NCBI GenBank assembly: GCA_905178155.1 | Contig: CAJINV010000005.1 | Location: forward strand, 8,344,556 to 8,408,555 | Reading direction: 5' to 3' | DNA from: Amoebophrya sp. A120 | Lineage: Eukaryota; Protista; Dinoflagellata | Length of the DNA: 64,000 bases | Shown: positions 1-64,000 of the stretch, piece by piece | Layout: each line of letters opens with the position of its first letter | Position numbering within the stretch: position 1 is the stretch's first letter | The notes under the pieces: model-generated | The model's database searches: none | What the model saw: only the letters and a program-made list of their open reading frames with translations | Told to the model about the DNA's origin: nothing | Position numbers and translations under genes: made by a program

Positions 1-2094
1 TTGGTTTCCTGTTCGTGTCCGCGGTGGCGCGCCACTTTCTCGAGCCGACGCGGGAGCGGGGAAGCACAACCTCTGACGAAAATACGGCCGCGGGAAATGA
101 GAGGATTCTAACGGCGGTGACCATCGGCGCAGATAGCGAGACGGAACCTGCTCCGGCGCAGTCTACTACTTTTGTCGACCACGAAGAGGCGACGCCCGCG
201 GCGAAGGGCGAAATCGATGCAGCTGTGGACACGACTGCAAGCAGCGCAGCGAGCGAAACGGCGCCACCCGGCGAGGTCGTGGTTGCGCGAGAAACTGCGC
301 CTGCAGCCGGGGACGGCGCGACGGGCACTCTGTTTCTTGAACGAGAAGCAGCAGCTGTGGACCGGCGGGGAGAACAGTCTTCACGTGAATTCGCCGAAGA
401 CCCCCGTTTCGGATCGATCGCACACGGTAAGGCACTTGTGGAAAAAGCTATGGACAAGCAAAATGGAAAATGGGTATCTCGATTTGACGTCAACCCCGTC
501 CTTGATGAATACCGGGTTGCTTTCCGGCTCGTGCTCCAGAAGAACGCGCTCAAACAGGACGCGTGCCCAATCCAGATGACCAGCGCTGAGATTCAATCTT
601 CTGACCCCGCCACGAGTTCTGAGGCACAGGTTGAACACGCCACGAGGTCTGCGCCTGAGGCTTCTTCTCCGCATGATTCTTGTGCGGAAGAAGTGTTGCA
701 GTGGGTACGCGGAAGATTTTTGGTTGAAGATGATAATGCGGTTGGTGTCCATGAGAATCCATTCTTGACCTTGCACTCGCACCTCCTCGTCGATTTGAAC
801 GGAAGTGAAACTTCATCGAATTTGCGGACCGTGTGCCAGGGGGAAATCACAAAGCTCAAGAAGGCAGCAACGGAGTCTGGTCCGTAGGCACTGCAAATAT
901 GTCTTGGTCTGGAAACTTGCGATGCTGGTTGATCGCAGTGATCGAGCATCGTCTCCAGTGCGGCCAAGCATGGCAAATTTCTGTGACGCCTTCTCATGCG
1001 TAGCGCTCATTAGAGACTGCTTATTTTTTGCCAAAAAATAAAAGAAGTCGCGCTTTTGTTAGTCACGCAACACAGATTTCGCAGTCATGTACGCCAGGCA
1101 ATACACAAGGGACAGGCTCCACTTTTCCAGACCCAGGAGACATATTTGCACTTAATACTGTGTCGTGGTGGGCAAATTTTAAGGCCAGAACGCACTTTCG
1201 TCTTTTTCCAGTGTATGCCAAGAAAAAAGTGTTAGAGTACTAGATGTGCACATACGTTGATTGTGTATTGTAGTTTCTGGCCAAGCACGTGCACGACTGC
1301 AGCGAAGGTCTGCAATGCAAGACATGCTCAAGAACACGAGTCTAGGTTCAGCATCCGTGCTGTTTTCCCTCATGATCATCTCTGCATTGAAAATTTGCTC
1401 GGTGATGAGGTAGGAGGAAACCTGTGTTGCTGGAGTTACAGCAAATCTGTGAAGAAGACTGTAGGTCCTAACACTTTTGTTTTCTTGGCATACAGAATAC
1501 GCGACCAAGCGGTATGTGGTGCTGCCGTTGCTGAAAAAGGCACTGCATCGCTGCGAGGAATTTGCCTCCGAGGAGCTTGCGCGGTCGAAGGCTGCAGATG
1601 AACGAACTGGAGCTGAAAAGCGCTTTTCTACAGAAGGCCCACCGGCAGGTGCACCAGGACCGGCACGTGCACCAGGCGAGGCAGGAGCTGGACGGGGAGT
1701 CGCGTCAGGGCCCGCGGTCGAGCTGCGTCAGGGCGCCACTGCCGCAGCCGCGTCACGCATCGAACCCGCCGCACCCGCCGCAGCCGCGTCACGCATCGAA
1801 TTCGCCGCACCCGGCGCAGCTGCGTCACCGATCGCACCGGCAGCAGCCGCCGACCGGCCCGCAGTCAAAGGCGCACCAGCGGGTGCTTCTCCAGCTCACA
1901 GTGGGCCTGCGAGGCCCTCGGGTGTGGGCGTGAGCGAGCCGAGCCGGCCCGGGTCTGCTTCCCCCGCACCCGGCGGGCATCAACGTGCGAATCCCTCGGA
2001 TCCGGGAGCAGGTAAGCGCACGCCTATAGCAGCCCATGAATGCATACGCATGTTGACAAACCGCATGACACAATACGCCACCAACCCAAAATAA
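1..2094 (+). CDS. 5'-truncated repeat-module protein, paralog of 12020-15720; interrupted by introners at 885 and 1214; probably continues past the in-frame TAA at 2092
   Basis: The FLFVSAVARHFLEPTRERG module is near-identical to the copies at 12085 and 14077. Removing the two elements joins KKAATES..SWWANFKARTHFRLFP..YATKRYVVLPLLK, colinear with the paralog. Confidence 0.75.
885..1157. mobile_element. Introner, family A (TIR core TGCAAATATGTCTGGGTCTGGAA)
   Basis: TAGGCACTGCAAATATGTC...GACATATTTGCACTTAATA. TSD is decayed (gtccg/ctgtg). The site is empty in the paralog at ~15185. Confidence 0.85.
1214..1492. mobile_element. Introner, family E (TATGCCAAGAAAA...TTTTCTTGGCATA)
   Basis: TIR seen; TSD cagtg/cagaa; same position as the element at 15240 in the paralog. 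Confidence 0.9.
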
Positions 2095-3118
2095 AAAAAA
2101 AAAACAACAGCGCCACCAGGAGCGGCGGGAGCTGCCGCAGCTGCGCCACCGGTCGCACCGATCGCACCGTTCTGGCAAGAACAAGAGGACCTACCCAATC
2201 CGCAGCCAGGTACCTTGCAAGTTTTTTTCTTTCCGTCAGCATGATTGGAGGAGGAGGTCCCAGTGCACTGACTTCTTGCTTGCGACAAACCCAAGGATTT
2301 GGCGCACGCTCGCATCTTCCCAAAGAGATGCAACAGGCGCGGCGCCGTTGTAAAGCCTGAACTGACAATTTCTATAACTCAACTATACGATTAGATGTTG
2401 TAGTCGAGACAATGAGGTGCAGGTGGAGTACTAAGATTAGCATGAAGAAAGAAGCCAAGTAGCGCTTGTCCACGACTTCTACTCGAATGCCTGCTCAAGG
2501 GATCGATGGGGCGACTAATTGGACTACTAGCAAATTAATGTTGCTCACAGGAAATTTCGATGTTCCGTATGCATACTCGTAGAAATGTGGTTTCTGAATG
2601 AAAAAAGGTTCTTTCGATCCTATTTATTGAGCAGCAGCGTCCTCACGAGTGGCATGCTCTATGTACGAAAAAAACTTGACGACATTTATTCTTGTGATGC
2701 ATTTATATGCGAAATTACTATCTCTTCCCTCGCAGGAGTCGACGAGCAAGGTGCGACCCCCTCGGATAAGGGTGTTCGCGAGCCGAACCAGCGCGGGAAG
2801 TGGATGGGCTACGACGTGAACGATGCCATGGATCCCGGGCAAGATAGAGGCAGTGGCTTCGTTTTTGCTGCCAGATTCAAGGACGACTTGGAAACCGGGG
2901 CAAAGGGGGTGGCGCTCGCGTATCCAAGGCAAGACGGGGTGGAAAAGGGAAAAGTAAAGGTGTTGATCGTGCCATTCAAGCCCGGGGGGGAGGAGTCTCC
3001 CGTGCGGATCGAAATGGTCTCGGCGGACGACCTCGTTCTCTCGCTCGCGTTGCCGCAGCTCGGATATGGACGCGGAAGTAAAGCGACACTGGAAAACGCT
3101 TTGCTCGGCCCGGATTCC

Positions 3119-3380
3119 TATGCAATGTAAAAATGTCTGTGTCTGGAAGGTTGCAACCTGTAATGCTAATTCTGGATCGTGCAAAAATCTGTGTTGCATG
3201 AATGCCAAAAGCTGTCCACTTTTGACCAAGTTGAGAGGAAGTTTCTCATGCAGGATAGGCACGGTACGGATCTCACAGAATCTGTCATGCTAGGTCTCGC
3301 ATTCCAGACCTCATGGCTTATGCAAAACGTGCATGACAAGTCTCAGAACCTTCCAGACCCAGACATTTTTGCATTTCATA
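3119..3380. mobile_element. Introner, family A
   Basis: TATGCAATGTAAAAATGTC...GACATTTTTGCATTTCATA; perfect TSD attcc; removal restores frame. Confidence 0.93.
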
Positions 3381-3511
3381 ATTCCATGGTGCGCGGGGTG
3401 TCGGTGAAATTTTCGGACCACGGACAAGACGCAAAAGAGATTTTTTTCTCCGCGGCCGCGTGCGCCAGGTCCTTCGGGTGGACAGCGGGGTTTTACGTGC
3501 AACAGCCTGAC

Positions 3512-3831
3512 TATGGGAGTGTAGTCAGGATTGAAATCGACAAAGTTGAAATAACTTATAATGCATAAAGCCGATACCAGTTGGAGGCCTAATTTTAAAG
3601 CGGTGCATGACAAATTTCGGCACCGTCTAAAGTCAGTTTGTTACGCTGTTTGGGCACAGAAGACGGCTTTTGTCATGCTAGTTTAGTAGCTCTATTTCAA
3701 ACCCTAAACAGGCTCACAATCGCCCTCACTTGCCATCCCGGCAAGACAGGCACTTCATGCCTTGCATTTTCTGCATGACAAGTTATTTTTTCAACTTTGT
3801 CGATTTCAAGATCAAGCCTGACGCTTCCATA
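3512..3831. mobile_element. Introner, family B (TATGGRAG..GTCAGG..TTGAAATCGACAAAGTTGAAA)
   Basis: ~45-bp imperfect TIR; perfect TSD ctgac; removal restores frame. Confidence 0.9.
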
Positions 3832-4335
3832 CTGACGCCGGTGGCGCGGCACCAGCCACGGAGAAGCCGAAGTTCGCCGCCGCAGATGTTGTGCTGCGTG
3901 ATCCTGCGACAAGCACTGATTTGGAAGTCCACGTTTTGGAGGCTGTCGGATGGCCTTACGGACGCGGCGGGGACGGACTCGATTATGCGCTCAATAAGTT
4001 GCCTTTGCCACTAACGATCGGCGATGCTGACGGTCTCGACACCAAACCCAGGACGACTCTGTTCGCACAAAACGCGTTTTTCTACATCTTGCAGCAGACA
4101 GAAGACGCATCCATGGTAAATATGCAACTGCGGAGCTTTCGGCGTATGTGTCCTGGCAACTTTGAGAAAGAGGTGTGCCGTATCCTCAATGAAAACGTCT
4201 TAGACCAACCAGTTTCAGCTTGGGAACTCTGCAACACAAATCCAGAAGTTTTGGAAGTCACGAGTGTGTGGCCGCAACTTCGTCTCTGTATTGTGGCGCA
4301 GCTGGCTAGCAAGGACAGTCGGGCCATGATATCCA

Positions 4336-4484
4336 TATCCTGTGTAGTGCTCACAGCATTACAAATGCCAAGGCACGATTGAAAATGGCACTCATGAGAA
4401 TGCGCATTACGAGAAGGGTGCCTGTGATTGCGTGAAATCTACTGCATTACAAGTCTGGGGTGGGGACGTTTTTTGCGCAGGATA
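4336..4484. mobile_element. Internally deleted introner, family C
   Basis: Right end GTGGGGACGTTTTTTGCGCAGGATA matches family C; left end is only TATCCTG; TSD atcca/tgcca. Confidence 0.55.
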
Positions 4485-5076
4485 TGCCAGGGTGATCAAA
4501 GCAAAGCAAAACATGAAAAGCACAAAGGCTCCAGCTGCAGCGCGGGCTGGAGTGGGATTCCAGACTTCGGGCAGTTCTCCGTCATGACGCATTGGCGGGA
4601 CAGATTCTTGACGGGGCTGATTATCAATCCAGATGTATCATGTGCATTTGGCATCCCAACATGCCGCCACATCTTTATGGGTCTCCAAGGCCGCGGCTAT
4701 TGCATGCGCTTGAGGTCCTGTTGCAATATGACGCGCCGCGGCTCGTCAAGCTTTTGCCCAATTACTCCAAAATGCTCATAACTCACGATGCAGGTAAGCG
4801 CTTCACACTGGTACAACTTTTAGTATACAAATAAGAGGATCTGGGCCGGGCTGTGCGTCATGTCTTTTATGTGCAGCTCGAGGGCTTGTGCGGTGCGAGC
4901 TTGGCTTGTTTTATACGTCGGAAAACCGGCTCAAGGAGGTGGTAGCATTCGCTTGCAGCCTGAACACAAGCCGAGCACTCGCATCACAATAGCCCTCCTT
5001 CGAGTATACCTTACAACTTCTTCGCGCTAGTAAATAAGTTTTCAGAAAAATCTTTGACGTTCGCTGTGGCCTGAAG

Positions 5077-5406
5077 TATCAAAACAAAAATGCCTTCCTC
5101 CTCATAATTTTAAACACCATGGGAGTAAGAAAAATGGTTTACGAGGGCAATCGAGAGCGCTTGGTTCTATTTTGTAGACGATTTGTTTCTGTTCTTGTCT
5201 AGTTTGCAGACGATTTCTACTGAGCCAGCATCTGTCTTCATGCCGCATAACCAGAATTCGACTCGCCGCACAGGCTAGAAATCCGAGGGCCTGCTCGTCG
5301 CTGCAACACGACAAACTAATTTGTGTACTACACAAATTATTTGATCATGCTTGATCAGAAATTTCTTTTTGAGCAGTATGAGGAGGGGGGCATCTTCCTC
5401 ACAATA
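5077..5406. mobile_element. Degenerate introner, family F-like
   Basis: TATC..ATGCCTTCCTCCTCATA and TATGAGGAGGGGGGCAT..CACAATA are inverted ends; TSD not recognisable. Confidence 0.55.
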
Positions 5407-5634
5407 ATTCGGATGATATTGGCACATCATACACTATGGTACATGCCGCGTATGCTATGCGCGATCACGTACACTCGGCTAGTTTGTTAGAATGGGGCTG
5501 CGAAAGCCGTGAAATGACCAAGACTACCTCGATACAAGAGCAAACCCAGCAGGGAACGTACTACGGTCGAAAAAATCATTACGGTCACCTCAAGGGCAGC
5601 ACGAAGATTGAGGCCGACTACTCGAAGTACGATT

Positions 5635-5902
5635 TATCCACAGCAAAGAGATCTGGGTCTGGAAGATTGCCAGGTTTCTCGTGCATATTTTGCATGATCC
5701 ATGATGCCTGTCGTGCATGGCCGAGCTTCCCACATTTGTGGAGTGCTTTCTGATGCCTATGCCGCATGTGTAGAAATGCCGTACCCGCGTAGCACAAACT
5801 AGACTTCTGTAACTTGGTGGTCATGCTACACAGATTTTTTTAGAATTGAAAGACAGGCAGCGTCACACCAGGCCTAGACATAATAAGTATTTGCATTGCA
5901 TA
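5635..5902. mobile_element. Introner, family A (reverse orientation)
   Basis: TSD cgatt; removal joins DYSKYD to LLKDEW. Confidence 0.9.
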
Positions 5903-6568
5903 CGATTTGTTGAAAGACGAATGGAGGGGTCCTCTGAAAACGAAAGAGATCGGTAGCCTTGATCGTTTCGCGAGGAGTAGTGCTGACGAGCAAGCGAAAA
6001 CGACGAATGAGGCCATTGTGTGCCAACGTAGCGAGGCCGACAACCCGGTCGAGGGTCTCCTGCTCCTCCTCCCGAAGCCCGATCAGCAACTGGTGGGAGG
6101 AACCTCGGCACCGTTTGCGAAGCCCAACGAGGCGATGAAGTTTCGGGACTTCCTAGAAAAGTACAAACATCTGCGACTTTTCCTGCGCGGGCCGGACAAC
6201 GAACCCTTCAACATGCGTGTGTTCGACAACGCAGAGGGGAAAAAACTCTTGAACAAGCTGGCAACGGAGGACGAGCAGGCGAAGATTACGTGGGAGGCGC
6301 TGGTTGGTGGAAAAGTTGGCGGTAATCAAGGAAAAAGGAGCCAGTCACGATGTGCCTTTCGCGTTTTTTATTTTTTGCCACGGCATTGGTATTTGAATTT
6401 CGTTTGTCATCAAGATATGCATTTGTTGTGTCTGTGTGTATAGGAAGTCGATGAAAACAACATTATATATAATTGTCTTTGTCGATGTTTTGTACCATGA
6501 CGCCTTGATGCAGTCGCTTCTGTAGAAGTGAGATGGCAAGCCGCGAAAAGCGTTTCCTCAGCACGGGA

Positions 6569-6851
6569 TATCCTGAGTAAAAACATCCCCACACCAGGGT
6601 CAAGATGGGGATTTTGCAACACAAACCTAGAACTTTTGGGGGTCACGCATCACAAGTTGCAGTCCGTAGTGTAGCGCAGGTTCGCAAGGCCAGCTGCATC
6701 AGAAATCCATCTGCTCATCCTGTTTACAGCATTACAAATTCCAAAACACGACTAAAATAAAATGCCTCTCCTGGCGATGCGCATTACAAATGTTCCTGTC
6801 ATTGCAAATCTGCATGACAACTCTGGTGTGGGGACGTTTTTACTCAGGATA
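6569..6851. mobile_element. Introner, family C (TATCCTGAGTAAAAAC...GTTTTTACTCAGGATA)
   Basis: ~30-bp TIR; TSD cggga. A solo family-C end also lies at ~7210. Confidence 0.92.
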
Positions 6852-6910: not shown

Positions 6911-7135
6911 TATGAGAGTGCACAACTCACCCTCCCCCTCATTTGTAGGGCATGAGGAGCAATACAAGCGTCGGCAAGAGTGCAGGCTTTGCATGACGAA
7001 TTCGCCCCGGATGGTAGGGTTGTTTGGGCTGCCAGAATCTGTCATGCAAAGAAGTGCCACGAGGCAAACGGAAAGGCGCGTTTGGTATTCAACATGACAA
7101 ATGAAGAGGGGGAGGGGGAGTTGTGCACCCTCATA
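6911..7135. mobile_element. Introner, family D (TATGAGAGTGCACAACTC...)
   Basis: TIR seen; TSD ttgca. Confidence 0.92.
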
Positions 7136-8918
7136 TTGCATACCTGGCATCGAGAAGCCTCGGGTCTGGAGGGGAGAGATGCGCCCGCCAACAGGGAATG
7201 GGGATTAGGTATCCTGGGTAAAAACGTCTCCATCTTCCGGTAGTTGTCATGCGAACTTCTTTTTTTCGTAGGCGTACTATCTAGTTTGTTTTCATGGCTG
7301 CACTTTGATTTTTTCTTTCTGTTTTTGAGTAAGTGTAAGTGACTGCTTTTTTCGATTAAGTACCTGAGGTTGCTCGGCTTTCACTTTGACATGATAATCT
7401 TGAGTTTTTTTGAACATAGTTCCTTCTGACGTAATTTTTTCACCACGATCGATTCGCTATTAGCTTTTCTCTTTTGTTTTTGTCGATGTATGTCATCCTA
7501 CTTTCTCCAAGCGTTTCGGTTTGACTTTCAAGACTCCCAACTTACTCATAAGCCTACTTTCATTCGTGCTTCCCCTTTCCAAGTAAGTACTGCGCGAGAC
7601 ACTGTTCTTCACTTCCACAGCATGTAGCAAATCGATAAAATAAAAAATCCACAAACATGATCAAGAGAGCACGAATAAAAGCAGAAGAAACCGCTCTTCC
7701 CTCTCAAGCTCTACGGCATTCCTTCTTTTTTTCGCACACTTTCGAAAACAGAAACTCAAAAAAGAATAGAGCTTTTCTAAATTTTTCAAACATTTTTTTC
7801 GCTAACAACCAACATTCATATCAGTTTTAATACGTTTTTTGCAGATGCAAACGCCGCCCTATTCATTTTGTCACTGCAAGGTGGAAGCAGCTTCGTGTCA
7901 CAGCCCCCGTCGCAGTTCGCAGGTGAAAAATCTATCACCGAAGCGCCACGATAAGCTAGTCTACTACCGCAGTAGTTGCAGTTTCTATTATTTTTATTCT
8001 ATTTGAAATACTAGGCCTGTTGTTCCTGTTGTAGCAGGCGTATTTTTGATTATGTTGTCAGAAGTTGAGCGAGGTTTGACTTGATACTCCTGTATGATTT
8101 TCAACATGATCTTTACACTTCTGTTCAAAAAGCGCCGAACGGGAAAAAGAACGCACGAACCTTTTCAATAGCAAATTGTTGGTGTAAGAATGAACGTTAA
8201 GAGGCTGCATCAAGAGAGCCGAAAATGGCATATCGTGGCGGGACCGGAGAAAGAGGAACTGTTCCACCCTCGTCGTTCAGGTGCCGCTAAGTAGCAAACA
8301 CGACCTTCGGATGAGCTGTATCCTCTTTTTGCTTGATGTTTGTACGTAGCATCTTCACTTCACCTCGGATGTCTTTTTGCTTGATGTGTAGTCTTCGCGC
8401 TCCGGCGGAAGGCGGTAACCACGTAGAGAAGTTTGTTTACTGTTGACAAAGGTAAGAACGTCCTCGGTAGAAGTTCCGCACATACGTATTAATTTCGTCC
8501 GCAACATCAAGAAGGATCGGTTTGTTTCGTGTGCAACTACGCTTCGATCGGTAGTTTTATTCGTACTTCTGACACGAGAATCTTCTCGGTGGACGATGGT
8601 CTATCTTCGATTTCTTGACGTCCGTCGAAGAATTCGCTCTCGCTTCGTCCATAGTTCATCAAAACCGTGCAAATAAGAATGTCGTTGTGCTTTTGCTTAG
8701 TGCTATTTTCACGCATTTGCGTGTAGAAGATGTCGCTCGTCATGCTTGGAAAGGATTGAGATCATTGTGAAAAAAATACGCTTCAGTGGACAACTCTTTT
8801 TTCCACTTCTTCCCCCTAGTTCCCCGCGAAAAAGAATTTTTGTCGTCTTTAACGTGTTCCTCAAGTTTTGACAAAGACTCCAGGCTTAGAAAAAAAAGAA
8901 CACAAGCGAATTTTTAAT

Positions 8919-8972
8919 CAAACGAATATTTTTCGAACCAAAAATATATTTTTGATAAAAAATATTCGTTTG
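8919..8972. repeat. AT-rich imperfect palindrome; its left arm recurs as a direct repeat at 11857-11876
   Basis: CAAACGAATATTTTT ... AAAAATATTCGTTTG with a central CAAAAATATATTTTTG palindrome. Confidence 0.7.
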
Positions 8973-9259: not shown

Positions 9260-10930
9260 ATGTTTGACGCACGCAGCGCGCGCTTGCTTGCGTCAGTAGT
9301 GGCGATGGTGTGCGCGTGGTGTTTTGTGCTCCGAGATCAGGAAAAAAATTTGGCGCGCTGCGCGCGCACAGGTGTCTTTGTTTTGGCAGTTGCTTGCGAT
9401 GCCCATGTCGCGTTCGGCAATCGGGGGCCGCAGGCGGCCGAGAAAAAAAATAATGCGCGCTGCGCGCGCACAGACGCCCTGACCTGCTTCGGTCATTGCG
9501 TCTGGCCGAAAAAATTTTCTTGCAAACCTGGCGCTGGCGCGACGGACCGAAGCTTTTTTTTCGCGCCCAGCAGCCGGAAGCTGGCCGACGAGAGAGCTTT
9601 CGAGCGCTGCGTGCGCGCAGGCGCCTCCCTTGGCCTTGGAGCGGGGAAAATTTTTTGCAGCGCGCCCGGCAGTCGGGGGCTAAGAGGAAAAAAATTTTCG
9701 CGCGCTGCGCGCGCGCAGACACCTGAGTTGGCTCTCGCGCGGGGTGAGGGCGCGGAAAGCTTTATTCGCGTTCGGGAGCCAGCGGCCTACCGGGGAAAAA
9801 ATGCTCGCGCGCGCGCTGCGTGCGTCCAGACCCCTTGGACTGAGGGCGCGGAGGGTTTTTGTCGCATGCGGGCGCGGGCGGTTGGTCGGAAAAAAAAATT
9901 CCGCTCGTTGCGCGCGCGCAGACATCTCGGCGAAGGGGCGTCAAGCTAACCCCGGGGGCTGGCCGGATAGACTGGCGGGCAGGCACGGTGGGTCGCACTT
10001 TGTTTTTTCGCGCCTGGCAGTCGCAGCTCGGCTGGAATGCAAGTTTGCGCGCGCGCAGGCGCGTCGGCTTGAAAACGCGGACAGCTTTGCTCGCGTCCGG
10101 CAGCCGGGGGAGCGATGGTCGTGAAAAAAAATCTGGCGCGCTGCGCGCGCGCAGTCGCCTCGGCCTTATAGCGGGATGTGTTTTCCTCTTCGAGATCTGT
10201 ACGTGCGGGCCTGCCTTAAAAAAGTGCGCGCCTCGCGCACTCGCTGCCGCCTTCGCCTAGAATCGCGGAAAGTTTTCTCTTGCCCGGCAGTCGGAAAGTG
10301 GCACGCAAAAAAAATTTCGCGCGCTGCGCGCGCGGGGATGCCGTGGCCTGCGAGTGCGGAGAGCTAGCAGCTTGCTCTTACCCGGAGCCCGGGGCTTTGC
10401 CGGGAAAAAATGTTGCGCGCGCGCAAGCGCCCCGATTTGGTAGCGCGAATAATTTTTTTGCGAGGTGTGCGCGGAGGCCTGCCTGAAGCACAATGCTCGC
10501 GCGCTGCGCGCGCTCGCTGGCGGACGCCTTGGCAGGGGGGCGCGGAATTCTTTTCACGCCCGGCAGTCGGTAGCCGGCAGAGTGGGCGCGCGGAAAGCGC
10601 GCAGAGTGGGCGCGTGGAGTTGTTTCTTTTGTCACGTTCGGCATTAGTAGTTGGCTTGGAAAAAGATTGCCTTTGCGCCGTGCGCGCGCAGAGGCCTTAG
10701 CCTGAAGGCGCCGTAGGTATGTCTTTACCTCGCCACGAGGCGGTCCGGGGCTGGTCGGATAAAGAAAAGGTCTTCGCCCGCTGGGCGCGTGCAGAGGCTG
10801 CCCGGGCCTGAGGGTGTGGGGCGTTAGCGCCGTGTTCCGCGACGACTGAGGGCGCGGAGCGTTTTTCTCGTGACCCCTGACCGGGCGCCGCCCGGGTTCG
10901 TTTTTTTCTCTTCGCGCACTGCCCGCGCCC
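9260..10930. repeat. Degenerate ~95-100-bp tandem repeat (A-tract followed by GCGCGCTGCGCGCGCA)
   Basis: Motif seen at ~9341, 9441, 9600, 9691, 9800, 9891, 10041, 10125, 10311, 10405, 10491, 10671 and 10771. Confidence 0.8.
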
Positions 10931-11630: not shown

Positions 11631-12019
11631 AGGGTGCAGGGGTCCGGGCAATCGGCCAAAAGGATATATCTTTTCAAAAGCATATTTTTTTCAAAGGGAT
11701 ATTTTTGCGATATTTTCGCCAATTCCTTGCCTTTTTATGCTTTTGGTTTCTCTTTTTCTTTTTCTTTTCTGTCTTTTTTCTTTTCTCTTCTTTTCCTTTG
11801 TGTTTCTCCTTATCTTTGTCATTTTCTCATCCTCTCGTATTCAAATGAATATTTTCAATCAAACGAATATTTTTCGTGTTCTTTCTCTCCGAGCTCAGAC
11901 TCCGAGCTCAGACTGTTTTCCTTATTTTCATGAACTTCATTTTCATCTTCCATTCGAGGACCCCGACATATTTTTATTTGCACTTGATAGCGAAGCAGAG
12001 GCAGTAGCGGAACAAGGCG

Positions 12020-44400: not shown

Positions 44401-45994
44401 CACAGCATCAGCAGACAACTGCGAGCGCCAATGCAAGTGGAAACACGAACAACATGACTAACACGAGCACTTGGTCGCCGGAAATGATGCCGCAATTGCC
44501 ACCAATGGGTCTGTATGCATTGCAAAAGTAACGTACTAGTATAAATTGCATTACAAATTTGGTCAAGAAGAAAGTGGGATTTGTAATGCTGTTTTACCTT
44601 TGGAGGAAGATTTGTCGTGCATATCTGAAATTACTACGAGTGCGATAATTTTGCATTTCATAGTCTGATCCCTACCTCCGCCACGGCGCCGCAAATTCCC
44701 ACTTCTGGGATCTCCGAACGAAGAGACAGCACAACCTGGGACCTACAAAACCAGTCGCAGAGTCAGGTGCTGCGGGAGATGAACGATGTCACGACGTATC
44801 CGCAAGAGATGCTGCAAAACAATGCGGGCACGATTCCCCCGAACAATGGAGGTGCAGCTGGGAAGGGCCGGGCGGGACTGAGTGAGGTTCTGTTCAGTGT
44901 TCAAGGGCAGCAGCAGCTGCAACCCCAACAACCGCAACAACCGCACCAGGCTCCTCTAATCCAACCAGCGCCGGCTCCGAGGGACACACAAGCTACTCAT
45001 ACGATGAGCGACGGTACTTCGGTTCGTATCAACTGCAAAAATGTCTGGGTCTGGAAACTTGTAATGCTGCGTTGGGAATAGTGAATGCTCTGTAATGCAG
45101 CGGCAAGCATGAGAAATATCTGCGCTTCTTTTTGTTGCGTTTTTCGCATGACAAACTGCGTTTTTGCATGACAGGCAAAAGGGCCTCGTCTTGGACACGC
45201 ATCACAAACTTTTTGGTCATGCCAGACAAGCATGACAAGTCTCGAAATCTTTCAGACCCAGAGATTTTTGCAATCCATAGTTCGTAACACGACTCCAGCG
45301 GGCAGTCCGGCGATTCATGCGCAGGATGTCCCGGTAGATGTCCACGTTCTGCAGCAGGTCGCGTCTTATGCGTTGCAAATATGTTTGGGTCTGGAAGAAT
45401 GCAGGAGTTTGTCATGCAGATTTTGCATGACCCATAGGATCTGTGATGCATGCCTTAGCACCAGAGATTCTGCGACGGCTTTCTGATGCTCTTACCGCAT
45501 GAGAAATGCCCTCTCCGCATAGCAAAAATTGGACCTCTTTTGCTGTTCATGCAATACAGATTTATTGTACAAGCCAAAGCCAGCATCACAAGCTGCATCC
45601 TATCAGACCCAGACATATTTGCAGTTGATACGTCCGCGGGGTCTTTATCCTGGTCGGTCAGTTCCCCTGGTTTGCCACCGCTGAGCGGGGGAGGTGGTCC
45701 TTCGGGAGGGTACGGTTCGGGCGGTGCTGTGGGCGAGCTGTATGGAGGACAAGCGGGGGGATCGTCGTCTTTGGGCAGCTTGGGAACTACAAATAACGCA
45801 GGAGGAAGTTCTTTTGCGGGAATGCAGCAGCAGCAGCAGCAGGGTGCTAGTTTTGGTTCTGCGCAGCAGCAACATCTGCAGGTTCCGCAACAGCAGTACG
45901 GGGCCGGTGTGCAGCCACAGCAGCAGATTACTACACCGCAGCAGCAGCAACAAGGGCAACAAGTGGTGCAGCAGTCCTCACAGGCGGTAGCTGT

Positions 45995-46033
<39 letters not shown>

Positions 46034-53166: not shown

Positions 53167-53404
53167 GACGAAGAATTCCCAAGAGGTGGACCAAGCAGTT
53201 GTGTGTAAAGTGCTTCCAGCGATGAAACAGATTCTGACTCTGTGGCCTCCGCCTCGAATCGGCGCTGATTTTTACCGCGGGTCAACTAGTGTGACGAATG
53301 AAGATCGCGAAGTTTTTACAGCAAACTGTCAAAGGCAGAAGGATTAAAGTATTTCGTGTCAAGGTAGGTGTATACTATCGAGATTTTCCGAGCAGAAGTG
53401 CGCT

Positions 53405-54469
53405 TCCTATATACTATACGGCAAGAAAATCGATTGACGCCTAACCCGATTTCTACTAGTAAAATCTTACTAGTAAGGAAAGTCCGAGAACTTTATTAGT
53501 AAACAACGTTGCTAGTAATCTTATCCGGACAAGCAAGCAAAAAAACTACTAGTAAGCGTACTAGTAGAGAGTTTACTAGGAGCAAGCTTACTAGTAGAAA
53601 ACTGCCTCGCGGGCCGGTTCGCCCCGAGCTTCCGCCACAGAGCTCGCCCGCGCTGCTTGCTTCCCTTGCCCCCTGTGGAGGACCTAGCGCCGAGCAACCC
53701 GTGCCTGTGTGGTAGCGCGGGGCGTGGCGCGTGTTCCCGGGAAAAGGGGGCGCAGCCGTGGGAGGGCGAGTCCTTATTTATCTGCCCGAGGGTGGCGCGG
53801 CGCGCGCTGCTGGGCCCGCAAGTGCAGGCGATCTAGCAGCTCCGGCCCCGCCACGGTGCCGGGGATGGCTTTGCGCTTTGTTTGGGTCGCCACATTTTGC
53901 CCCGCGGGGGCGGCCCCCTCTTGGTGTGGATGCTCCCGCCGCCCTGCACAAAGAAAAAAGCGCCTTTTCTCGATGCCTTAAATGGTTATCACACACAGCG
54001 GGCCCAGTCCCACTGTGCTGGCTGCACCTGCCTGGCAGGCCAGGTTCTCTGTCGCGCACGCAGTTTCCACAGCTGCGCCCCTATGTGCCCCGTCAAAAGC
54101 AGCCCTGCCGCCTTGGAGGCGTAACTAGCATGACGAGCAGCCGCCCGCAAGTCTCGCAGCCTGAGGGGGTGCTCGCAAATTTATTGGGAACCCGCGGAGC
54201 TTCTCCTCCGGAGATCGCAAATTTATTGTTCTTTCTTTCTCCTGGACCCGGAGCTTCTCCTGCTCCTGGGGCCTGGGGCGGGCCCCTGTCACACCTATTG
54301 TCTTTCTCCGGGGGGCTCAGGCGCACGGAAAAGCCCTGCGACTGCAGGGTTTTCGTCCCCCCTCCACTCCTTCCGCGCCCCTGCAGACGTCTTACAGGGA
54401 GATCGGGCCCATCGTTTCTTTGTCTGCTCCATACCTCTCCGGCGGTCGCGGAGCGACCGCCCGTGCTAG
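53405..54469 (+). mobile_element. Putative non-autonomous Helitron-like element
   Basis: 5' TCCTATATACTATA; 3' perfect hairpin GGCGGTCGC-GGA-GCGACCGCC (54441-54461) followed by CTAG; no TIR. The flanks are not the canonical A|T. Confidence 0.6.
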
Positions 54470-54496
54470 ATAATACTATCGAGATGTTCCGAGCAG

Positions 54497-55512
54497 AAGT
54501 GAATCACTTTCAAAAGAATCATAGGGCCGAAAAAAAAAAAAAATTTGCGTCCCCAACTGCCGTAGCGCCTGCAGCTTTTTTCCCCGCGCCAGAAACAGCT
54601 GGTCGGTAGATTGCAGTGGGCGAATGCTTGAGAAGGCTGCGACCAAAAGCCCCAGGCGTCGCATTTTAGTAAGGATGTAGTGCGCAGAAGATGCCATAGA
54701 AGTTACCACAAGACCAGCCCCAAAGCATCACACCGTGGCGCATAATGCTACCCCGCATGGTGCTACTGGCGCACTATTCTTACTCTTGCCCTACTCTACT
54801 GTTACCAAGTGGCGAAAGAAGAACAGTGGAGGTGTAATCACTTGAGATGCTCAGCCTGTTTCAGACGAAAAAAAAGTCAAGCCCACTTGATATCTGCTTG
54901 GGTGATTTGACGCGAAAAAGACGCGCTTCGGGCATCAGTTTGATGCCAAAAGTCGCGCTTTTTTGCAGGGGTGATTCAAGCAGATACTAAGCGGGAGGAG
55001 TCAAATGAATCATAGGGCTAATTGATAGCTACAAAACGCAAGGTGATTACACCTCTTTTTTCGCTTCGAAAAAGATGAATTTTTGGCAAAAGTTGTCACT
55101 TTTTCACAAAATGCGACACCCTCGGAACGCTACGCCCGACGGTATGGAGGTGTAATCACTTCAGTTTTGTGGTGTCGCTTTTCCTATCTTTAGCAATGGG
55201 CTTTTGCTTGGTATTTTGGGTTGCGAATGCTTCCCCCGAGTTGTTTGCAAGCTATTCAGGCGCGATGGCCCCAGCATCCACCCATGGCCATTGCGTTCGT
55301 CCCCCGACCGTAGCCACCAACCAAATAGCGCAAACCTTATCGAGAAAGGCGCGACTTTCCTGAGAAGCGTCGCTGTGTCTCAGGTTATTTGGTTGTATAT
55401 GTTGGGCGCTACTTTATGCGTGCGAGCCGTGCCATGCACTGCGGTACACGGAAATTTTTTTTTTTTCCGTATGGTGATTCATTTGTAATGTGATTCATTT
55501 GCCCCTGTGATA
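54497..55512. mobile_element. ~1-kb TIR element of the ...GATA type with a damaged left end
   Basis: Left AAGTGAATCACTTTCAAAAGAATCA is inverse to right TGATTCATTTGTAATGTGATTCATTT..GTGATA; internal GTAATCAC/GTGATT motifs recur. Confidence 0.55.
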
Positions 55513-57264
55513 GTCAAGGTAGGTGTACATTACCGAGATTTTCCGAAAAGAAGTGCGCTTAGAAAATCCTTTTTTCAAGAAATGCTTTCTGTACATTTTC
55601 AATTGATGACGTTTCTCTATTAAAACTCGTAATCTTCCAGGGAGATCTAGATCTTGATCTAAAGTCGTGTCGCAGCCAAAAAAAAGAAAGCATGATAGGC
55701 TTGATCTAAACAGGAACAGGAACTCCTACTTTTCATGATACAAGCACATCCTCGAAGCAAAATTGAAGTCACAATGTCTGAGATCGTATTCTCAGTTTTA
55801 AGGGTATAGTAGAGTCAATGTCAACAAGGTCGGGAAAGCTGTCCCGATTGAAACCAGATTGGGCAGTTTCTATGGCTGTGGTCGCAGCAAAAAACCTGAA
55901 TGTTATATTTTTTTTCAAAACTGACGCGAAGAAGGTCAGCGCGATAAAGATCGCGATCGCGTAGCAGTAAAGATTTTTCGCAATTTTACCATATTATGAG
56001 AATACTACTTTATCGCAGTACGTTGGATTCTTGGCATTGGTGCGTATAAAAATCAGGAAATAAAGCAAGTAGGCGCCGTACAGAAGAGACTCTTTCTTAT
56101 TAAGAGCCTTCGCTTGGTGAAAATATTAAGCTTCTTGTGCTTTTTTACCTAGGAAGAAGGCAAAGGCGACGTGCTAGCTGTGGCACGACCTGTAGCATTA
56201 GGTGAGGAGTCGTGGTTTGTTTGAAGAACTGCGCTTGTTGCAGCTCCGTCCGTAGCTTATTAGACTCCTATTATTGGGCTCGGATGACAATTATATTTGT
56301 GTGATAAAAACGAAAACGATCGCGATCGCGATCACCAGAGGGGCGCTGTGGCGTAGTTAGAGGGCAAAGCAAAGGAACGGAACGTAGATGCGGAATAGGA
56401 TGGAAAAGCGCTTGGAAAAACAGAGCGAGAAAAGAAAAAAAAGTATCTCAAAAAAGGGAAGATAAAAGAAAATTCACGAAGAATGACTTCCGGGCTTGCC
56501 CAGCTTCGTCGAGAAGTGGCCTAGATGGGCGGACTGATGTTCTTCAAGTAGGTCAAAGGTCCCATAAAAATCGGGTATGATTTACACGAGAATCTCCTCC
56601 TCGTTCCGTGTGAGAGCGAGGCCTTGCCGTCTTCGTTGCTATGTATAGTTCAAATGAGAATTATCTTGAGATCGTTCCTTGATCTTGTCGGGACCACTTG
56701 ATTTTGATAAGTGAGTGATCAAATGAAAGAGACTTTTGGCATCGAATGGCTCTGTGCACGTGGTCTCGAATACAATGTAAAATTTTGATTGGAAAATAAT
56801 CGGATCGAAAACGTACTTCCGATCATATGACAATATCGCACTGAATCTTCGAAAAATATAACTTTCGATCCGTGCCCGTCATCTCATTGGTATTCTATTT
56901 TTCTAAAAGAAGGAAACTCCGAATCGAAATGAAAATTGTGATCTCTTGGAGTAGAAGCGAGGCCCGAGAGGGTCGCTCGGATTATCTTCCTATGTATTTC
57001 GCTAAAATTGTGATTGTGGTTGAAGTTGTTGTGTGTAATGTTGGCAGGTCGCTGTCTGGCTTTCTACCAGGAAGGAGTAGTGGATATAGCACGACGTCGA
57101 TATCATGTTGAAGAGGAGCGTCGCTACCGCTAGATATCTTTTCATCTGCCGCTAAGAGATACAACAACTCACCCGCATTGGACTAATTTAGCGACCACCT
57201 TGTTTTTAGCGAGGTTGGTAAAAGTCTGTGTAGTGAACGAGAAGTCATAGCACTAGAAAAAAAG

Positions 57265-59077
57265 ATGTTCCGCAACACCACCACTCCCTTCGGCACAACT
57301 ACTAACCGCGACCGCCTCCCCTCCAGCAACCCGAGTTCGAACAAAAACTACCAGTCCGCGCTCCCAGACGAGCATGATGAGCAACTCGCTTCCGATTTTG
57401 TCGGTGGTTTAGCCGGACTCGGCCAGTCGAGCCGGTTTAATTCGCAGTATGGGGGAGGTAGTTCTTCCTCCAGCAGGGGAACTGCGGCGTCAAGTGCTTT
57501 GTTTAGTAAACCCAGAACACCGCAGACCCCAATCAAAACGTCGAAAGAGGTAGTGGAGGACATTGTGATGGGCGATGCGTCGTCGAACCATAATTACAAC
57601 AGCTCCCGAGGACATCAATCGTCGTCAAACTGCGGCCTCTTCCAGCGTTCCGCACGGGACCTGGGACAGCTCTTCGCCCGGATAGATGCGGCGGATGGAG
57701 ATGAGCACGACAATAATCACCACCCGATAAGCTCGGATCAAGATGAGGAAATGCTGGATCAGAATGGGAAAAACGCATCACAGAAGTCCTCCGCGTCCTC
57801 GTCACACACCGTGGAACCAGTCCCGGAGTACGAGTTGGATACAAGTACACTAAATAACAGCTTCAGCAGCATGCTGCCAGGTGGAACAATGTTGAATAGC
57901 CGGCAAAATGGAGCAGGGGTAGTACCATCCACGAACATCATGAACATAGCGAAAGGCGCGTTTTTCTTCCAGGGAAATCCGCCCGAGGGCATGATGTTTC
58001 CGGCGGGTGGTGCGTCGAACAACGGTCAGGTGGTATCAACATCTTCCCCTTCCAGTAGCGACAGCGCCACCAGCAACCCAAATCGAATACCGTTGCAGCA
58101 AATCCCCGTTTTCGTCAGTTCTATCGCCCAGACGATTTTTAACAGCTGTGTTCTAGCGCTCGGGTTTTGGGCTTTGTACAGCTTTTACGCGATGATCCGG
58201 GATGACATTCAGACGAAGGTGGAAAAATACTCGCAAGAGATTTTGGACCAGATAGAGAAATGCAGCCACGACTACACCGTGAACAAGTATTGAAATGGGT
58301 TACGTTTTTTTTTACAACAAGATTCGTCGACTCGCTGAACACCTTTTTTCGTGCTGTTTGCATCATCACTAGTACAACACCACCTACACCCGCTAGTACC
58401 GGGATGAACAAATTCAAATTTTACTACAAGGTTGAGCTGCAGCATCACATGATCTTCACACCATATTATCAAAATCAAACTTTCTCAATTAATACCAAAC
58501 TATCAGGTGCGGCATCGACGTCCGTCCGGCTCTGGAACAGCCCTGCCGGCAGTGGCAGGCCTGTATGGACCAAGATCCTTTGCAGGTTGCGTACAAAACG
58601 AAATTTTCCGCCGCGACCTTTGGCGAGGCCTTGAACGGCTTTTTTTCCGAATTGGAATGGAAAACCATTGTCGGGTTTCCGCTGTTGATGGTGGTGGTGT
58701 TGATCGGGTTCAATATGCTGTTTGGGATGATGAACAGAACGGGTGGTGGGGGTGGGAGAAGTGGTACGACGGGAGGAGTTGAGCAGCAGCAATATCATGC
58801 GCAGCAGATGCAGCAGTATAACAACCAAAATCTTCCCGGCTCTTGGGGCGCATCATCATCCTCCTCCTACCACCAGCTTCCTTATCCGCAGCCACAGCAG
58901 TTTCTGGAAGATAATTTCGATTTCAGCGGGATGAAGGGAGACAATGACTATCGGAGTAATCGTCCTGGGTGTCATTCTACTTCTTCTATGATGCCAGCAA
59001 GCATCACAGATATGGACCACAGCGCTAGTACAACCGGGCGCGGTAGCAATTTACACCATCGAGGAAGGTTTTACTGA
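57265..59077 (+). CDS. Brr6/Brl1-family nuclear envelope protein, ~530 aa; GT-AG intron 58287-58506
   Basis: Two TM segments flank the four-Cys loop CSHDYTVNK|CGIDVRPALEQPCRQWQACMDQDP..KFSAATFGEALNGFF, typical of the Brr6-like C-C domain. Confidence 0.88.
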
Positions 59078-60047: not shown

Positions 60048-61246
60048 ATGCCACGGCACGAGCGCGCCGCTGCCGGCGGAGGTGGGCGGAGGCGGCAACG
60101 GAAAGGGGATCTTGCCGCTGGTGCAGGAGAAGAAGATAACTCCACGGCGATCCAGATAGAACAAGAACCCGAAGTAGCCCCACCGCCCCCACCGCCCCCT
60201 CCACCACCACAAATAGCGCCATATACTTCTCCTCCGCCGAAGTCAAACGCCAGTCTCCCAGACACGGCGGCCGAAGTCCTCTCGCCGAGTAGTAAAGCAC
60301 AACCATCCTCTTTATCCCTCGCCGCCGCCATGGCGGGGGGGAGCAAGGGACCGCAGTCGATGAACAGGCCCAGTGCGAGACACTCCAGGTTTCAATCGTT
60401 GGCGGCGCAAGATTTAGACGTGAGAAAAGACCGGCATTTGGACACGATGCAGTGCGTGCAACTGCCGAAGAACCAGAAGAAGCCCATTATGGATTGCAAA
60501 TATGTCTGGGTCTGGAGGAATGCGAACTTGTGATGCAAATTTCACAACACATGAAAATCTCTCATGCATAGGCAACAAAAGCTGCCCACTTTCTGTCACC
60601 AAAATGTGGCATTTGTGATGCGGATTCGGCATTGCGGAAGCTTCTCGAAATCTGTGATGCTAGAGCTTCCATGCCAGACCTTATGCGTCATGCAAAAGCA
60701 GCATGACTCTTCCAGACCCAGACATTTTTGCAGTTGATACCCATGATTGCGGTACAACACACCTTCTGGCTGGTGTTCGGCGGCATGCCGTTGGTGATAT
60801 TGTGGGCGGTGTTCGGCTGCTTAATGATCTTCCCCGGGGCTTTGCTTGGTGCTTACAGTCACGCCTGGAACTGTTGGGGCATTGCGGCGATCATATTATA
60901 TCCGTGGAAGAAGGATAAAAACATCTGGCAGAAACCAAACCAACGCGCAGCGGCGGGTGGAGTGGGCAATATTCTGTGGTTTCCCTTTGGATTAGTCCTG
61001 TTCTTGCTCCACTTACTCGGGGCGTTTTTGTGTTTACTGTCCGTCGTCTGCATCCCCGTGGCGTGTAATCACATGCGACTCGCGAATATTGCTTTAACCC
61101 CGTTCGGGTTGGCGTTTACGCGGGACGACGCGAAGGAGGCAATAGTTCTGAAACCCAGAGAAACCGTGGCGAGTCAGATGCATTCAAGGATATCGACGCG
61201 GGGGAATTTCTGGAACTCGAAATCCAAAGCGAGTCAGATAATGTAG
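60048..61246 (+). CDS. YccF-domain (inner membrane component domain) protein, ~313 aa, with a Pro-rich N-terminus
   Basis: FWLVFGG...ILYPW and GNILWFPFG..LHLLGA..CIPVA..MRLANIALTPFG are two YccF-like repeats. One introner removed gives 942 nt in frame. Confidence 0.8.
60488..60739. mobile_element. Introner, family A
   Basis: TIR; TSD cccat. Confidence 0.94.
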
Positions 61247-62056: not shown

Positions 62057-64000
62057 ATGTGTCAAATCGGTCTCGGAGGGTTAAAATCCCTCTTTCTGCT
62101 CTGCGCGACCGTGACCTGGCTTGCGGGACTCGGGCTCTTCGTGCTATCTCATCTCGCCACCAAGTCCCAGGGCTTAAAACGGGCCGATGACATGGTCTAT
62201 GCATTGCAAGTATGTCTGGGTCTGGAAGGATGCGGGGTTTGTTATGCTTGTCTGGCATGACTGAGGAGTTTGTGATGCGTGTCCGAGAAGAGACCCTTTT
62301 GCTTGTCATGCACAACGCAGCTTGTCATGCGGAAAGCGCAACACGAAGCCGCGCAAATATTTCCCATGCTTGGCTGTGCATCACAGAGAATTCACTCTTC
62401 ACAGCTCAGCATTACAAGTTTCCAGACCGAGACATGTTTGCATTTGATATGGTCAAAGCAGATACGATGGACGGAGACGGAGTTCCGATTTCGTTGCACC
62501 TGTTTTTCCTCTCCTTACTGACTGTCGGGGTTCTGTCCCTCTTTTTCTCCGTGTGCGCGTGTGTATGAAAGTGGAGGGACAACTCCCCTCCTTCTCATTT
62601 GTATGGCATGAACAGCAACACAAGCAACCGCAGATATTTGGCTTCCGCATGACAAATCTGTGCACGCATGGTTGTACTGCTTGAGGTTCCAAAATTTGGC
62701 ATGCAGATAGTGCCTAAAGACAGGATGTAGATTTGGTATTTTGCATTACAAATGAGGGGAAGGGGGAGTTGTGCACTCTCATACTGTACCGGAGTGGCGT
62801 TGAAGAAGCGGACCTTTATTGTCGCGTACGTGTTCGTATGGATTGCAAATATGTCGGCCTCTGGAGAAGTGGAACTTGTCATGCTGCCTCTGGATTCGAA
62901 AAAAATCTGCATTGTATGAGCAGCAGGAGGAGTCTAGTTCTTGCTGCGCGGAGAGGGCATTATTTCTCATGCGGGGTAGGCATCAACAAGCCTTGAAAAA
63001 GTCTGGGATGCTAGGACATGCATCACAGCCGTCATGGGTCATGCAAAACGTGCATGACAAAGTAGCGCACTCTTGCAGACCCAGACATATTTGCAATGTA
63101 TAGTTCGGCTGCATGTTTCTCGGCGTCGCTGCGCTCACAATCACGATGTTGATGGGGGATGTGTACGCGGTGTTGCTCCCCACGATGCGCCGGCAAATCA
63201 CAGAGTTTTGTCTTCCGGATGCGTATGCTACGTTTAGCTACGAGTTGCGGACAAAGGAGCCGCGGGACCTGACGTGTGTGGTAAGTACAGTTGTTTTTTT
63301 GCATGCCTTGATGAGTAGAAGATTCAAGCATGCTAACCTGTACCTGCCTCTTCGAGTGCGATTGCTCTCATGCATGACAAGTGCCTCTACTTTCCCATTC
63401 CCTTTACCCTCCTCAACAATCCCACATCCAGGCCACCGCGACCCGACCAAAGGAGGCCCCGGACGGCGCCGTAATTGCCTTGCGCAGGTCGCTGGAAGGG
63501 GAAACAGATTTGCAGCGTGCATTGATGACAAGCCCACAGCATGACGAGGTACGTGCCCTGTCCACCGCGATTTCATCAGCAGCAGTTCCAGCAAGGAAAA
63601 ATGATGTACAGGAACTACGTCTGGCAGAGGTGGAGCATCAACCACAAAGGACCAAAGCGACCATGTTTCTCCCCCGCATCACCAATTTCGCAAAAACAGT
63701 CGGGCTGTTGAAAGGCGGGGAAAAACTGGAGCTGATCACCGACGCGGAGACCGAGTGGGATGAAGACGAGAAGATGTTGCCGAAAAGAATAGAGGAAATA
63801 TCCAGAAGGGGACACAGTGTAACTACTACGGTCTGGAAAGTTGGAACTTGTGATGCTAACTTTGGACTCGAAAAAAATCTGTATTGCATGACAAGCAAGA
63901 CGAGCCACATTTGTGCTACGCGAGGAGGGCATTTGTCATGCGGAAATGGCATCAGGAAGCTTTCCAAAAATCTGTGATGCTGGGTCATGCATTACAAGCA
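62057..64000 (+). CDS. 3'-truncated multi-pass membrane protein with tetraspanin-like topology; introners at 62198, 62564, 62837 and 63799; GT-AG intron 63281-63431
   Basis: Joined: LKSLFLLCATVTWLAGLGLFV..LTVGVLSLFFSVCACTGVALKKRTFIVAYVFGCMFLGV.. gives three TM segments followed by a large loop. Start codon uncertain. Confidence 0.65.
62198..62449. mobile_element. Introner, family A2 (reverse orientation)
   Basis: TIR; TSD tggtc. Confidence 0.94.
62564..62783. mobile_element. Introner, family D
   Basis: Imperfect TIR; TSD gtgtg/ctgta; frame restored. Confidence 0.88.
62837..63102. mobile_element. Introner, family A
   Basis: TIR; TSD gttcg. Confidence 0.94.
63799..64000. mobile_element. Introner, family A, cut by the window end; left terminus uncertain
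   Basis: The internal sequence from GGTCTGGAA (~63830) is colinear with the element at 13039. Confidence 0.75.

Follow-up and report, generated by a model that had tools for sequence, protein, structure and literature searches.

Here we describe a stretch of 64,000 nucleotides from the genome of Amoebophrya sp. A120 (contig CAJINV010000005.1, positions 8,344,556 to 8,408,555; the whole stretch is hereafter called the window), which carries 47 complete TAT…ATA inverted-repeat elements between positions 885 and 63102, plus two partial ones. The data suggest that these elements are removed from pre-mRNA at a likely fixed distance from the hairpin that their ends are predicted to form, with a rewired U2-type spliceosome as the probable catalyst, a reading to which we assign a probability of about 0.55. 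Its parts differ in strength: removal at the RNA level is very highly probable, a fixed register of the cut throughout the genome is likely, and catalysis by the spliceosome is somewhat favoured. The evidence supports a classification of the elements as transposon-derived non-canonical introns of the A120 type, with terminal inverted repeats (TIRs) and 5-bp target-site duplications. The system is thus the published introner system of A120 (PMC7789003) and is already known; the fixed register is a modest addition to it.

Anatomy of the elements

The main scan, based on 5-bp direct repeats flanking inverted ends, returned 45 pairs in the window, whereas three local shuffles of it gave 0, 2 and 2. 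Twenty-nine of these pairs were retained and 16 discarded as cross-pairings or low-complexity matches, while 18 further elements came from other scans. A relaxed scan gave 61 extra pairs, three of which (1214, 4636 and 15240) were retained with support from the deposited protein P0122 or from paralogy; the remainder was discarded as chance or cross-pairings. Element lengths range from 149 to 330 bp, with exceptions of 796, 1230 and 2667 bp, and the 47 elements together account for 15,629 bases of the window. Among the first 44 elements, 40 start with TAT and 42 end with ATA, and genuine end variants are TAG, TAC, TTA/TAA and ...ATG. The end consensus is TAT(C/G)-N6-AAA, with A at positions 11-13 in 36-42 of the 44 elements, and a TA-N8-AA-type end is common to all elements seen. 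The number of families is 14 at a permissive threshold and 17-21 at stricter ones, with seven families having several members in the window.

A perfect 5-bp duplication is present at 32 of the 47 elements. The duplicated 5-mers have no fixed sequence, either here or in the second assembly described below, and the insertion targets are essentially random 5-mers. Single genes hold copies of the same family in both orientations (for example 38229 vs 42978, and 41452 vs 45027), one element (5077-5406) sits inside a larger one (4636-5431), and the elements are repeated sequences whose summed contig depth is thousands of times the flank level. The first-pass annotation had counted about 47 TIR elements with TAT…ATA ends and variants, which is confirmed; its figure of about ten families was low, and of its 5-bp duplications it can be said that most are perfect and that, as shown below, their intactness is not needed.

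Removal of element length plus 5 nt

When each element is removed together with 5 nt, 42 of 44 elements fall in stop-free runs of at least 100 codons on the + strand, for example 10 elements in 4,340 codons and 9 elements in 739 codons; the remaining two (6569 and 6911) share one shorter open frame. Removal with +0, +4 or +6 nt instead breaks the long frames. If the elements are retained, 40 of 42 junctions acquire an in-frame stop and the other two a frameshift. The earlier proposal that each element has to be excised needs correction for the nested 5077-5406, which requires no separate removal.

Deposited proteins lend further support to these joins. Twenty-five non-nested junctions lie inside four such proteins (P0001, P0121, P0122 and P0123), with 21 elements outside them and one nested, and the joined models agree at all 25, in keeping with the initial claim that loss of an element plus one duplication copy restores the frame. 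P0001, named Amoebophrya sp. A120, is the best match of the kinase exon and is 100% identical over 1,294 amino acids and six element joins, and P0121, under the same organism name, is 100% identical to window exons. These proteins were annotated from the same or an identical genome, and are independent of the present reading, not of the DNA. The A120 gene models are based, according to PMC7789003, on transcripts aligned with BLAT.

Assembled contigs were compared over 29300-46000 from 16 listed contig pieces of 20,711; the 15 junction rows listed of 1,221 were all repeat cross-matches in X1 and were set aside. X1, a run of unrecorded kind that is DNA-like, shows a flat depth of 38-48x, and eight of its listed contigs continue from the flank into an element. 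In X3, a run guessed to be RNA, contig 13 omits 42972-43236, i.e. 265 nt (260 + 5), and two listed pieces of contig 12 lie 50 nt apart, exactly as predicted by the loss of 41452 and 41761. Probable-RNA contigs thus skip three junctions directly (41452, 41761 and 42978), each by element length plus 5 nt, as had been expected of transcripts from the sequence alone. Two raw-read runs taken as RNA, X9 and X10, yielded 112 and 11 reads, at element ends only, and are probably from another strain and uninformative on these genes; none of the runs compared is on record as RNA.

Reverse transcriptase classically switches templates at hairpins flanked by short direct repeats, and the joins could in principle be such switches, the genes being broken or the inserts retained. 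We consider this hardly credible: element 4636-5431 is joined without any repeat left, retention means a stop or a frameshift at 42 of 42 junctions, and the region 26453-52349, with its elements and one GT-AG intron removed, is stop-free over 6,098 codons, with a further 185 codons beyond. In addition, the kinase region encoded there is 67% identical to a protein of strain A25 and 47-64% identical to proteins of Saprolegnia, Polarella and Perkinsus.

Register of the cut

A perfect duplication lets the cut slide over six positions, register n denoting n duplication bases taken from the upstream copy and the remainder from the downstream copy. Ten junctions inside deposited proteins have decayed duplications, eight of which are informative, those at 22632 and 41452 being uninformative at the protein level. 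Registers 4-5 are allowed at 885 (GTCCG/CTGTG) and 1214 (CAGTG/CAGAA), registers 3-4 at 4636 (AGATG/CACTA), registers 3-5 at 23563 (AGGTA/AGCAA) and 23854 (CCAGC/CCTGC), and registers 0-4 at 4181 (TGCCG/TGCCA), 21444 (TCAAT/TCAAA) and 62564 (GTGTG/CTGTA). Register 4 is therefore permitted at all eight junctions, register 3 at six, register 5 at four and registers 0-2 at three. The residue at 62564 is supported by the homologue P0124, which also has Thr-Gly here, and the 41452 join (TCCGT/CCCGT) is compatible with the X3 contig, which takes the first duplication base from the left copy. At 4636-5431 the join still corresponds to length + 5 although the duplication is wholly gone, which shows that removal does not depend on an intact duplication.

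The intron is thus likely to be N+TAT…ATA+NNNN, in which a single nucleotide separates the 5' cut from the hairpin and four nucleotides separate the hairpin from the 3' cut, as read at the protein level at eight junctions and extended by inference to the others. It is unlikely that removal at the RNA level instead proceeds with a loose register, the cut sliding between duplication positions 3 and 5 from junction to junction. Every single junction does permit two or more registers, and the borders have been described as variable (PMC7789003); however, a single register accounts for all eight junctions, and sliding alignments over perfect repeats are expected to mimic variability, with which the mixed splice-site tallies of A120 families in the rows of PMC12130899 consulted are compatible.

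The mirror register (1) is excluded at all five junctions able to test it, an outcome expected by chance about once in 32, which points to a strand-aware process and favours removal from RNA over removal from DNA. A developmental excision of DNA in the transcribing stage, similar to that of the internal eliminated sequences (IESs) of ciliates, would fit the transposon anatomy of the elements. It is further helped by the guessed nature of X3, by the tendency of assembled contigs to drop rare variants, by the unrecorded stage of the DNA-like run and by the location of the five mirror-excluding junctions, all on one strand of one region. Nevertheless, we regard it as very unlikely, given that X1 contigs cross the junctions unbranched at flat depth with the elements kept, and that registers 1 and 4 should be equally frequent if the process took no account of transcription; moreover, no second nucleus is known in this group. 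The first-pass view that excision from DNA is the less likely route is strengthened accordingly.

Splice signals, stem pairing and the catalyst

Canonical splice sites offer little explanation for these junctions. GT-AG is available in any register at only 1 of 44 elements (23563), where that register (2) is not used and would give the wrong residue compared with the deposited protein; GT-, GC- or GA-AG or AT-AC ends occur in any of the six registers at 6 of 44. Canonical or near-canonical sites hidden in sliding registers were rejected on this ground. A hint in the window of selection for a GT donor at +1 (G in the left copy at 4 of 7 position-5 mismatches) found no support in the second assembly, where the left copy has G in 3 and the right copy in 4 of 12. 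In register 4, every one of the 47 elements has T at +2, and the base after the 3' cut is A or G in 30 of 47.

End-to-end pairing into a predicted stem has a mean probability above 0.5 in 36 of the 44 folded elements, and element 37377 has a folding z of -2.98. Mirrored positions are pairable in 44-47 of 47 elements at positions 1-3, in 23-35 at positions 4-7 and in 43-45 at positions 8-13. The ends of all families often mismatch at positions 4-7 (TATC vs TATG), so that a loop separates a short cap helix from a long one, an arrangement that could be a recognition feature for a transposase or a splicing factor. A YTNAY-like pentamer ending at an A 7 nt before the 3' cut is present in 19 of 47 elements, although, being part of the TIR and counted without a control, it is a lead only.

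With neither a G at +1 nor an AG end preferred, the simplest assumption is that distance from the stem guides the cuts. U1 is undetected in A25 and A120, where nearly all spliceosomal proteins are detected (PMC7789003), and was found in a GT-AG strain from Karlodinium (PMC12005148). Together with a tunicate precedent for a modified spliceosome (PMC13326754), this favours a rewired spliceosome. The elements, which lie in the DNA in either orientation at essentially random 5-mers, would have been inserted by a transposase encoded elsewhere. In the transcript their ends are predicted to pair, a 3-bp UAU/AUA cap being followed by weak pairing over positions 4-7 and, from position 8 on, by a firm helix. 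Cuts would then fall 1 nt before UAU and 4 nt after AUA, as read from the proteins at eight junctions, so that length + 5 is lost and the sequence before insertion is restored. Both cuts would be positioned by the stem, and not by GU-AG or by the duplication, and for this reason both orientations would work. Most speculatively, the retained U2/U4/U5/U6 machinery, with U1 replaced, may read N-UA where canonical introns have G-UA.

A serious though less probable alternative is a separate, spliceosome-independent machine acting on RNA, an endonuclease plus ligase which recognises the paired TAT/ATA ends and cuts across the stem base, 1 nt before and 4 nt after (a 1-nt 5' and a 4-nt 3' overhang). 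In its favour, the elements lack G+1 or AG preference, and the asymmetric offset resembles the N3-CDG...CH'G-N5-6 signature of Euglena, whose authors suggest non-spliceosomal proteins (PMC12501133); euglenid introns are also released as full-length circles (PMC11282704). On the other hand, U1 seems to have been lost in precisely the two introner strains, which suggests a change in the spliceosome itself, and the layout of inverted and direct repeats is also seen on 15% of canonical A120 introns (PMC7789003).

Several points weigh against hairpin-guided removal at a fixed register by a rewired spliceosome. G is not preferred at +1, an AG end is found in 1 of 47 elements, and in the second assembly G is as frequent at duplication position 5 (38 of 118) as at position 1 (37 of 118); this missing preference is hard to reconcile with known second-step chemistry, and conservation of N-TA would also be expected simply of a transposase end. 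The ends fold poorly in 8 of 44 elements. The RNA nature of X3 is a guess, and direct skips are seen at three junctions only, with none at 18704 or 36449. The register derives from eight junctions in annotated proteins and not from reads, the junctions being few and all on the same strand of a single region; only two of them rule out register 3, and the data also agree with a cut that varies between 3 and 5. Finally, the legend of Fig. 3 in PMC7789003 calls the splice sites 'variable' relative to the hairpin.

Host genes

Seven host genes, all on the + strand, carry the elements, apart from the unassigned pair at 6569 and 6911 and a lone end. Host gene 1 (3-6443) starts before the window and is matched exon by exon by P0122 (1113 amino acids). 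It has GT-AG introns at 2012-2110 and 2210-2735 and seven element introns: 885-1157 (TAG..ATA ends), 1214-1492, 3119-3380 (main family; duplication ATTCC), 3512-3831 (singleton family; CTGAC), 4181-4484, 4636-5431, which harbours the nested 5077-5406, and 5635-5902 (CGATT). Downstream, 6569-6851 (CGGGA) and 6911-7135 (TTGCA), with no host gene assigned, are followed by a lone left end of the 6569 family at 7210-7252 whose right end was not found.

Host gene 2 (12020-15720) is a paralogue of gene 1 with 858 stop-free codons once its four elements are removed: 13039-13300 (TAG..ATA; GACAC/GGCAC), 13554-13840 (GGAGC/GCAGC), 14711-14990 (CTGCG; inverted relative to 6569) and 15240-15526 (CAGCG/CAAAG). 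The gene repeats its own N-terminal block internally (about 12090 and 14070). Elements 15240-15526 and 1214-1492 represent one element at the same site in the two paralogues, and its insertion is therefore older than the gene duplication. Host gene 3 (16564-19095), with a C-terminal C3HC4 RING, has elements at 16634-16907 (GTTTT), 16975-17227 (CGGCG), 17307-17569 (GGACA) and 18704-19027 (GAGCA), the last of which, resting on frame evidence only, interrupts the RING finger before its last CxxC.

Host gene 4 (20081-24389; 708 amino acids, no family found) agrees with P0121 at nine of nine joins. Its elements are 20283-20543 (CGCAC), 20629-20939 (CGAAA), 21017-21267 (CCTAC), 21444-21633, 22092-22359 (TGGAG), 22632-22787 (ACACC/ACACA, where the choice is synonymous), 23227-23504 (TAC..ATA; TTGCC), 23563-23774 and 23854-24063.

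Host gene 5 (26453-53166) is predicted to encode a WNK-type kinase of about 6,280 amino acids (Pfam Pkinase), mostly consisting of low-complexity Ser/Gln tracts; the deposited P0001 is a partial protein, and the public model of this gene may be fragmentary. In addition to GT-AG introns at 36829-37089 and 52350-52608 it holds 16 elements. The first, 29601-32267 (2,667 bp; TTA..TAA ends; CCAAC), contains subterminal 11-bp repeats, two sets of internal tandem duplications of about 720 bp and a TTAGGG-like patch near 30050-30125. X1 depth over it is several times the flank level, which indicates a few copies, and its TTA start is the motif given by Farhat for strain A25 in the text of PMC7789003. 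It is followed by 32717-33946 (1,230 bp; GGCCG), spanned in full by one DNA-like contig, and by 34007-34329 (CGGGA; inverted relative to 18704 and 38567), 35801-36041 (AGCTG), 36113-36262 (TGACG) and 36449-36597 (CAGAG), the last just upstream of kinase subdomain I, where homologues align without a gap over the join.

Element 37377-37582 (GGGTA) falls in the kinase activation segment, between DLG and GTPEFMAPE, and its position, like that of 18704 in the RING finger, is as first proposed; of 18704, 36449 and 37377, only 37377 is covered by a deposited protein. The segment exceeds that of most homologues shown by 4-8 residues, and homology alone therefore does not fix the length removed. The rest of the gene carries 37904-38169 (ACTCC), 38229-38491 (TAT..ATG; AGGAG), 38567-38884 (GCACA), 41452-41704, 41761-42030 (TGGAA), 42978-43237 (ATTGC), 44514-44662 (GTCTG), 45027-45279 (GTTCG) and 45367-45630 (CGTCT/CGTCC).

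Host gene 6 (60048-61246) encodes a YccF-domain membrane protein and has one element, 60488-60739 (CCCAT). Host gene 7 (62057-64000), encoding a hydrophobic protein without a Pfam match in the two exons tested, is covered by P0123 and has one GT-AG intron, three complete elements at 62198-62449 (TGGTC), 62564-62783 and 62837-63102 (GTTCG), and a fourth cut off by the window end (63799-64000), the P0123 exon ending one base before its TAT.

Elsewhere, a Brr6-like gene at 57266-59077 has one GT-AG intron and no element. A degenerate GC-rich tandem array at 9330-10900, with about 12 copies of a unit of about 92-100 bp, is enclosed by an imperfect 36-nt inverted pair (8937-8972 and 11842-11877) and may be a satellite or a further mobile element. 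Downstream of the kinase gene, an intergenic stretch (53358-55560) contains a 48-nt motif three times at a spacing of about 1.1 kb, with short repeats rich in TACTAGTA at 53450-53600. An Rfam scan gave no match at gathering thresholds, including for the repeats of this intergenic region.

Mobility and a second assembly

The main TIR motif was found in an estimated 520 or so stretches of a metagenome collection (from 15 of its 64 parts), and all 147 listed loci (L001-L147, 544 kb) share one assembly prefix, JACKZZ01. Elements number 344 in these loci; 266 of them have perfect 5-bp duplications, identity to the window copies reaches 97.5%, and 39 of the 47 window elements have relatives there. 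In a frame test of 228 of these elements, the longest frame was obtained with +5 at 110, with +3 at 19 and with +4 at 10; seven gave ties, and at 82 no frame reached 60 codons. Empty orthologous sites were sought in the 147 loci, where the masked window had no match and no locus matched the window exons.

No autonomous element was seen among 257 elements in these loci, the longest candidates being cross-pairings or having no telling open reading frame (ORF). Inspection by eye, with no Pfam scan of the ORFs, revealed no transposase-like ORF in the two long window elements (29601 and 32717) or in four long candidates elsewhere. Integrases of the Copia/Gypsy type produce 4-6-bp duplications, and a TIR family described with a Copia/Gypsy-like ORF (PMC12130899) is therefore a lead for the transposase. 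Among 21 of the 58 A120 rows of a dataset of that study, most families are classed as TIR DNA of unknown superfamily (PMC12130899).

Relation to known intron systems

The A120 introners comprise 29,850 repeated introns with a mean length of about 240 nt, with an inverted repeat of TAT, seven looser bases and AAA, and direct repeats of 3-5 nt; no transposase was found, according to the text of PMC7789003. The elements of the window share with them the organism, by protein identity (P0001 and P0121), the TAT-N7-AAA ends, the direct repeats at exon-intron borders, the lack of an internal transposase, the mixing with GT-AG introns and the co-oriented genes. They are also absent from transcripts at non-canonical borders (three X3 skips in a run guessed to be RNA; 25 of 25 protein joins). 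We see no difference in kind; the deposited proteins already omit the elements. The link to Farhat 2021 made in the first-pass annotation thus turned out to be one of the same organism and motif and not a mere analogy (PMC7789003). What appears to be added to the text of that paper, whose figures may show part of it, is the constant 5-bp duplication, the seemingly fixed register, the full decay of a duplication, both orientations within a gene, and nesting. Its Fig. 3 legend states that the border 'remains unknown', and a passage on four nucleotides upstream in A120 may touch on the register (PMC7789003). We found no announcement of the register in titles and abstracts of the literature, a search that did not cover subscription papers such as Roy 2023.

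The nonconventional introns of Euglena likewise lack GT-AG, have pairing TIRs, are cut at a set distance with a longer 3' overhang, and probably derive from MITEs (miniature inverted-repeat transposable elements) (PMC12501133; PMC11282704). However, Euglena is an unrelated lineage for which full-length circles are reported (PMC11282704), and its motif, CDG/CH'G, lies at +4 and -8/-9, whereas TAT/ATA here lies at +2 and -7; a purine is preferred after the 3' cut in Euglena, the corresponding count here being the 30 of 47 given above (PMC12501133). With N-TAT...ATA-N4 in place of N3-CDG...CH'G-N5-6, the elements are not of the Euglena type, though they work alike.

The introns of Fritillaria borealis are also MITE-derived, with TIRs and target-site duplications, and dispense with GT-AG in a genome where some canonical introns persist (PMC13326754; PMC11282704). 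They prefer AG-AC and AG-AT ends, U1 is kept, and a duplicated U2AF explains them (PMC13326754; PMC11282704), unlike the elements here, which have free terminal dinucleotides in an organism where U1 was not detected. Classical introners of Micromonas, Aureococcus and Polarella share the conversion of non-autonomous TIR transposons into introns and the loss of one duplication copy on splicing, but carry or co-opt recognisable splice dinucleotides (PMC12130899; PMC7789003). The elements here do not, and are not canonical GT-AG, GC-AG or AT-AC introners. Ciliate IESs are TA-bounded, transposon-derived inserts in coding sequence that are precisely removed from DNA in the somatic nucleus, leaving TA; by contrast, DNA-like contigs keep the inserts here, and the register follows the transcript strand.

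Implications

Were a separate RNA machine responsible, every insertion of this superfamily would be reversed whatever its orientation, rendering some 30,000 coding insertions harmless, and the machine would amount to a general RNA-level antidote to a transposon superfamily, convergent with Euglena. For the favoured reading of hairpin-guided removal by a rewired spliceosome, a fixed and strand-aware register, N-UAU…AUA-NNNN, would, if true, turn 'variable borders' into one rule. The borders of about 30,000 A120 introners could then be re-annotated, the places to seek branch points or circle junctions would be indicated, and a minimal test substrate would be defined. It would also imply a division of roles, in which the duplication keeps the protein intact at insertion and the paired ends probably guide removal.

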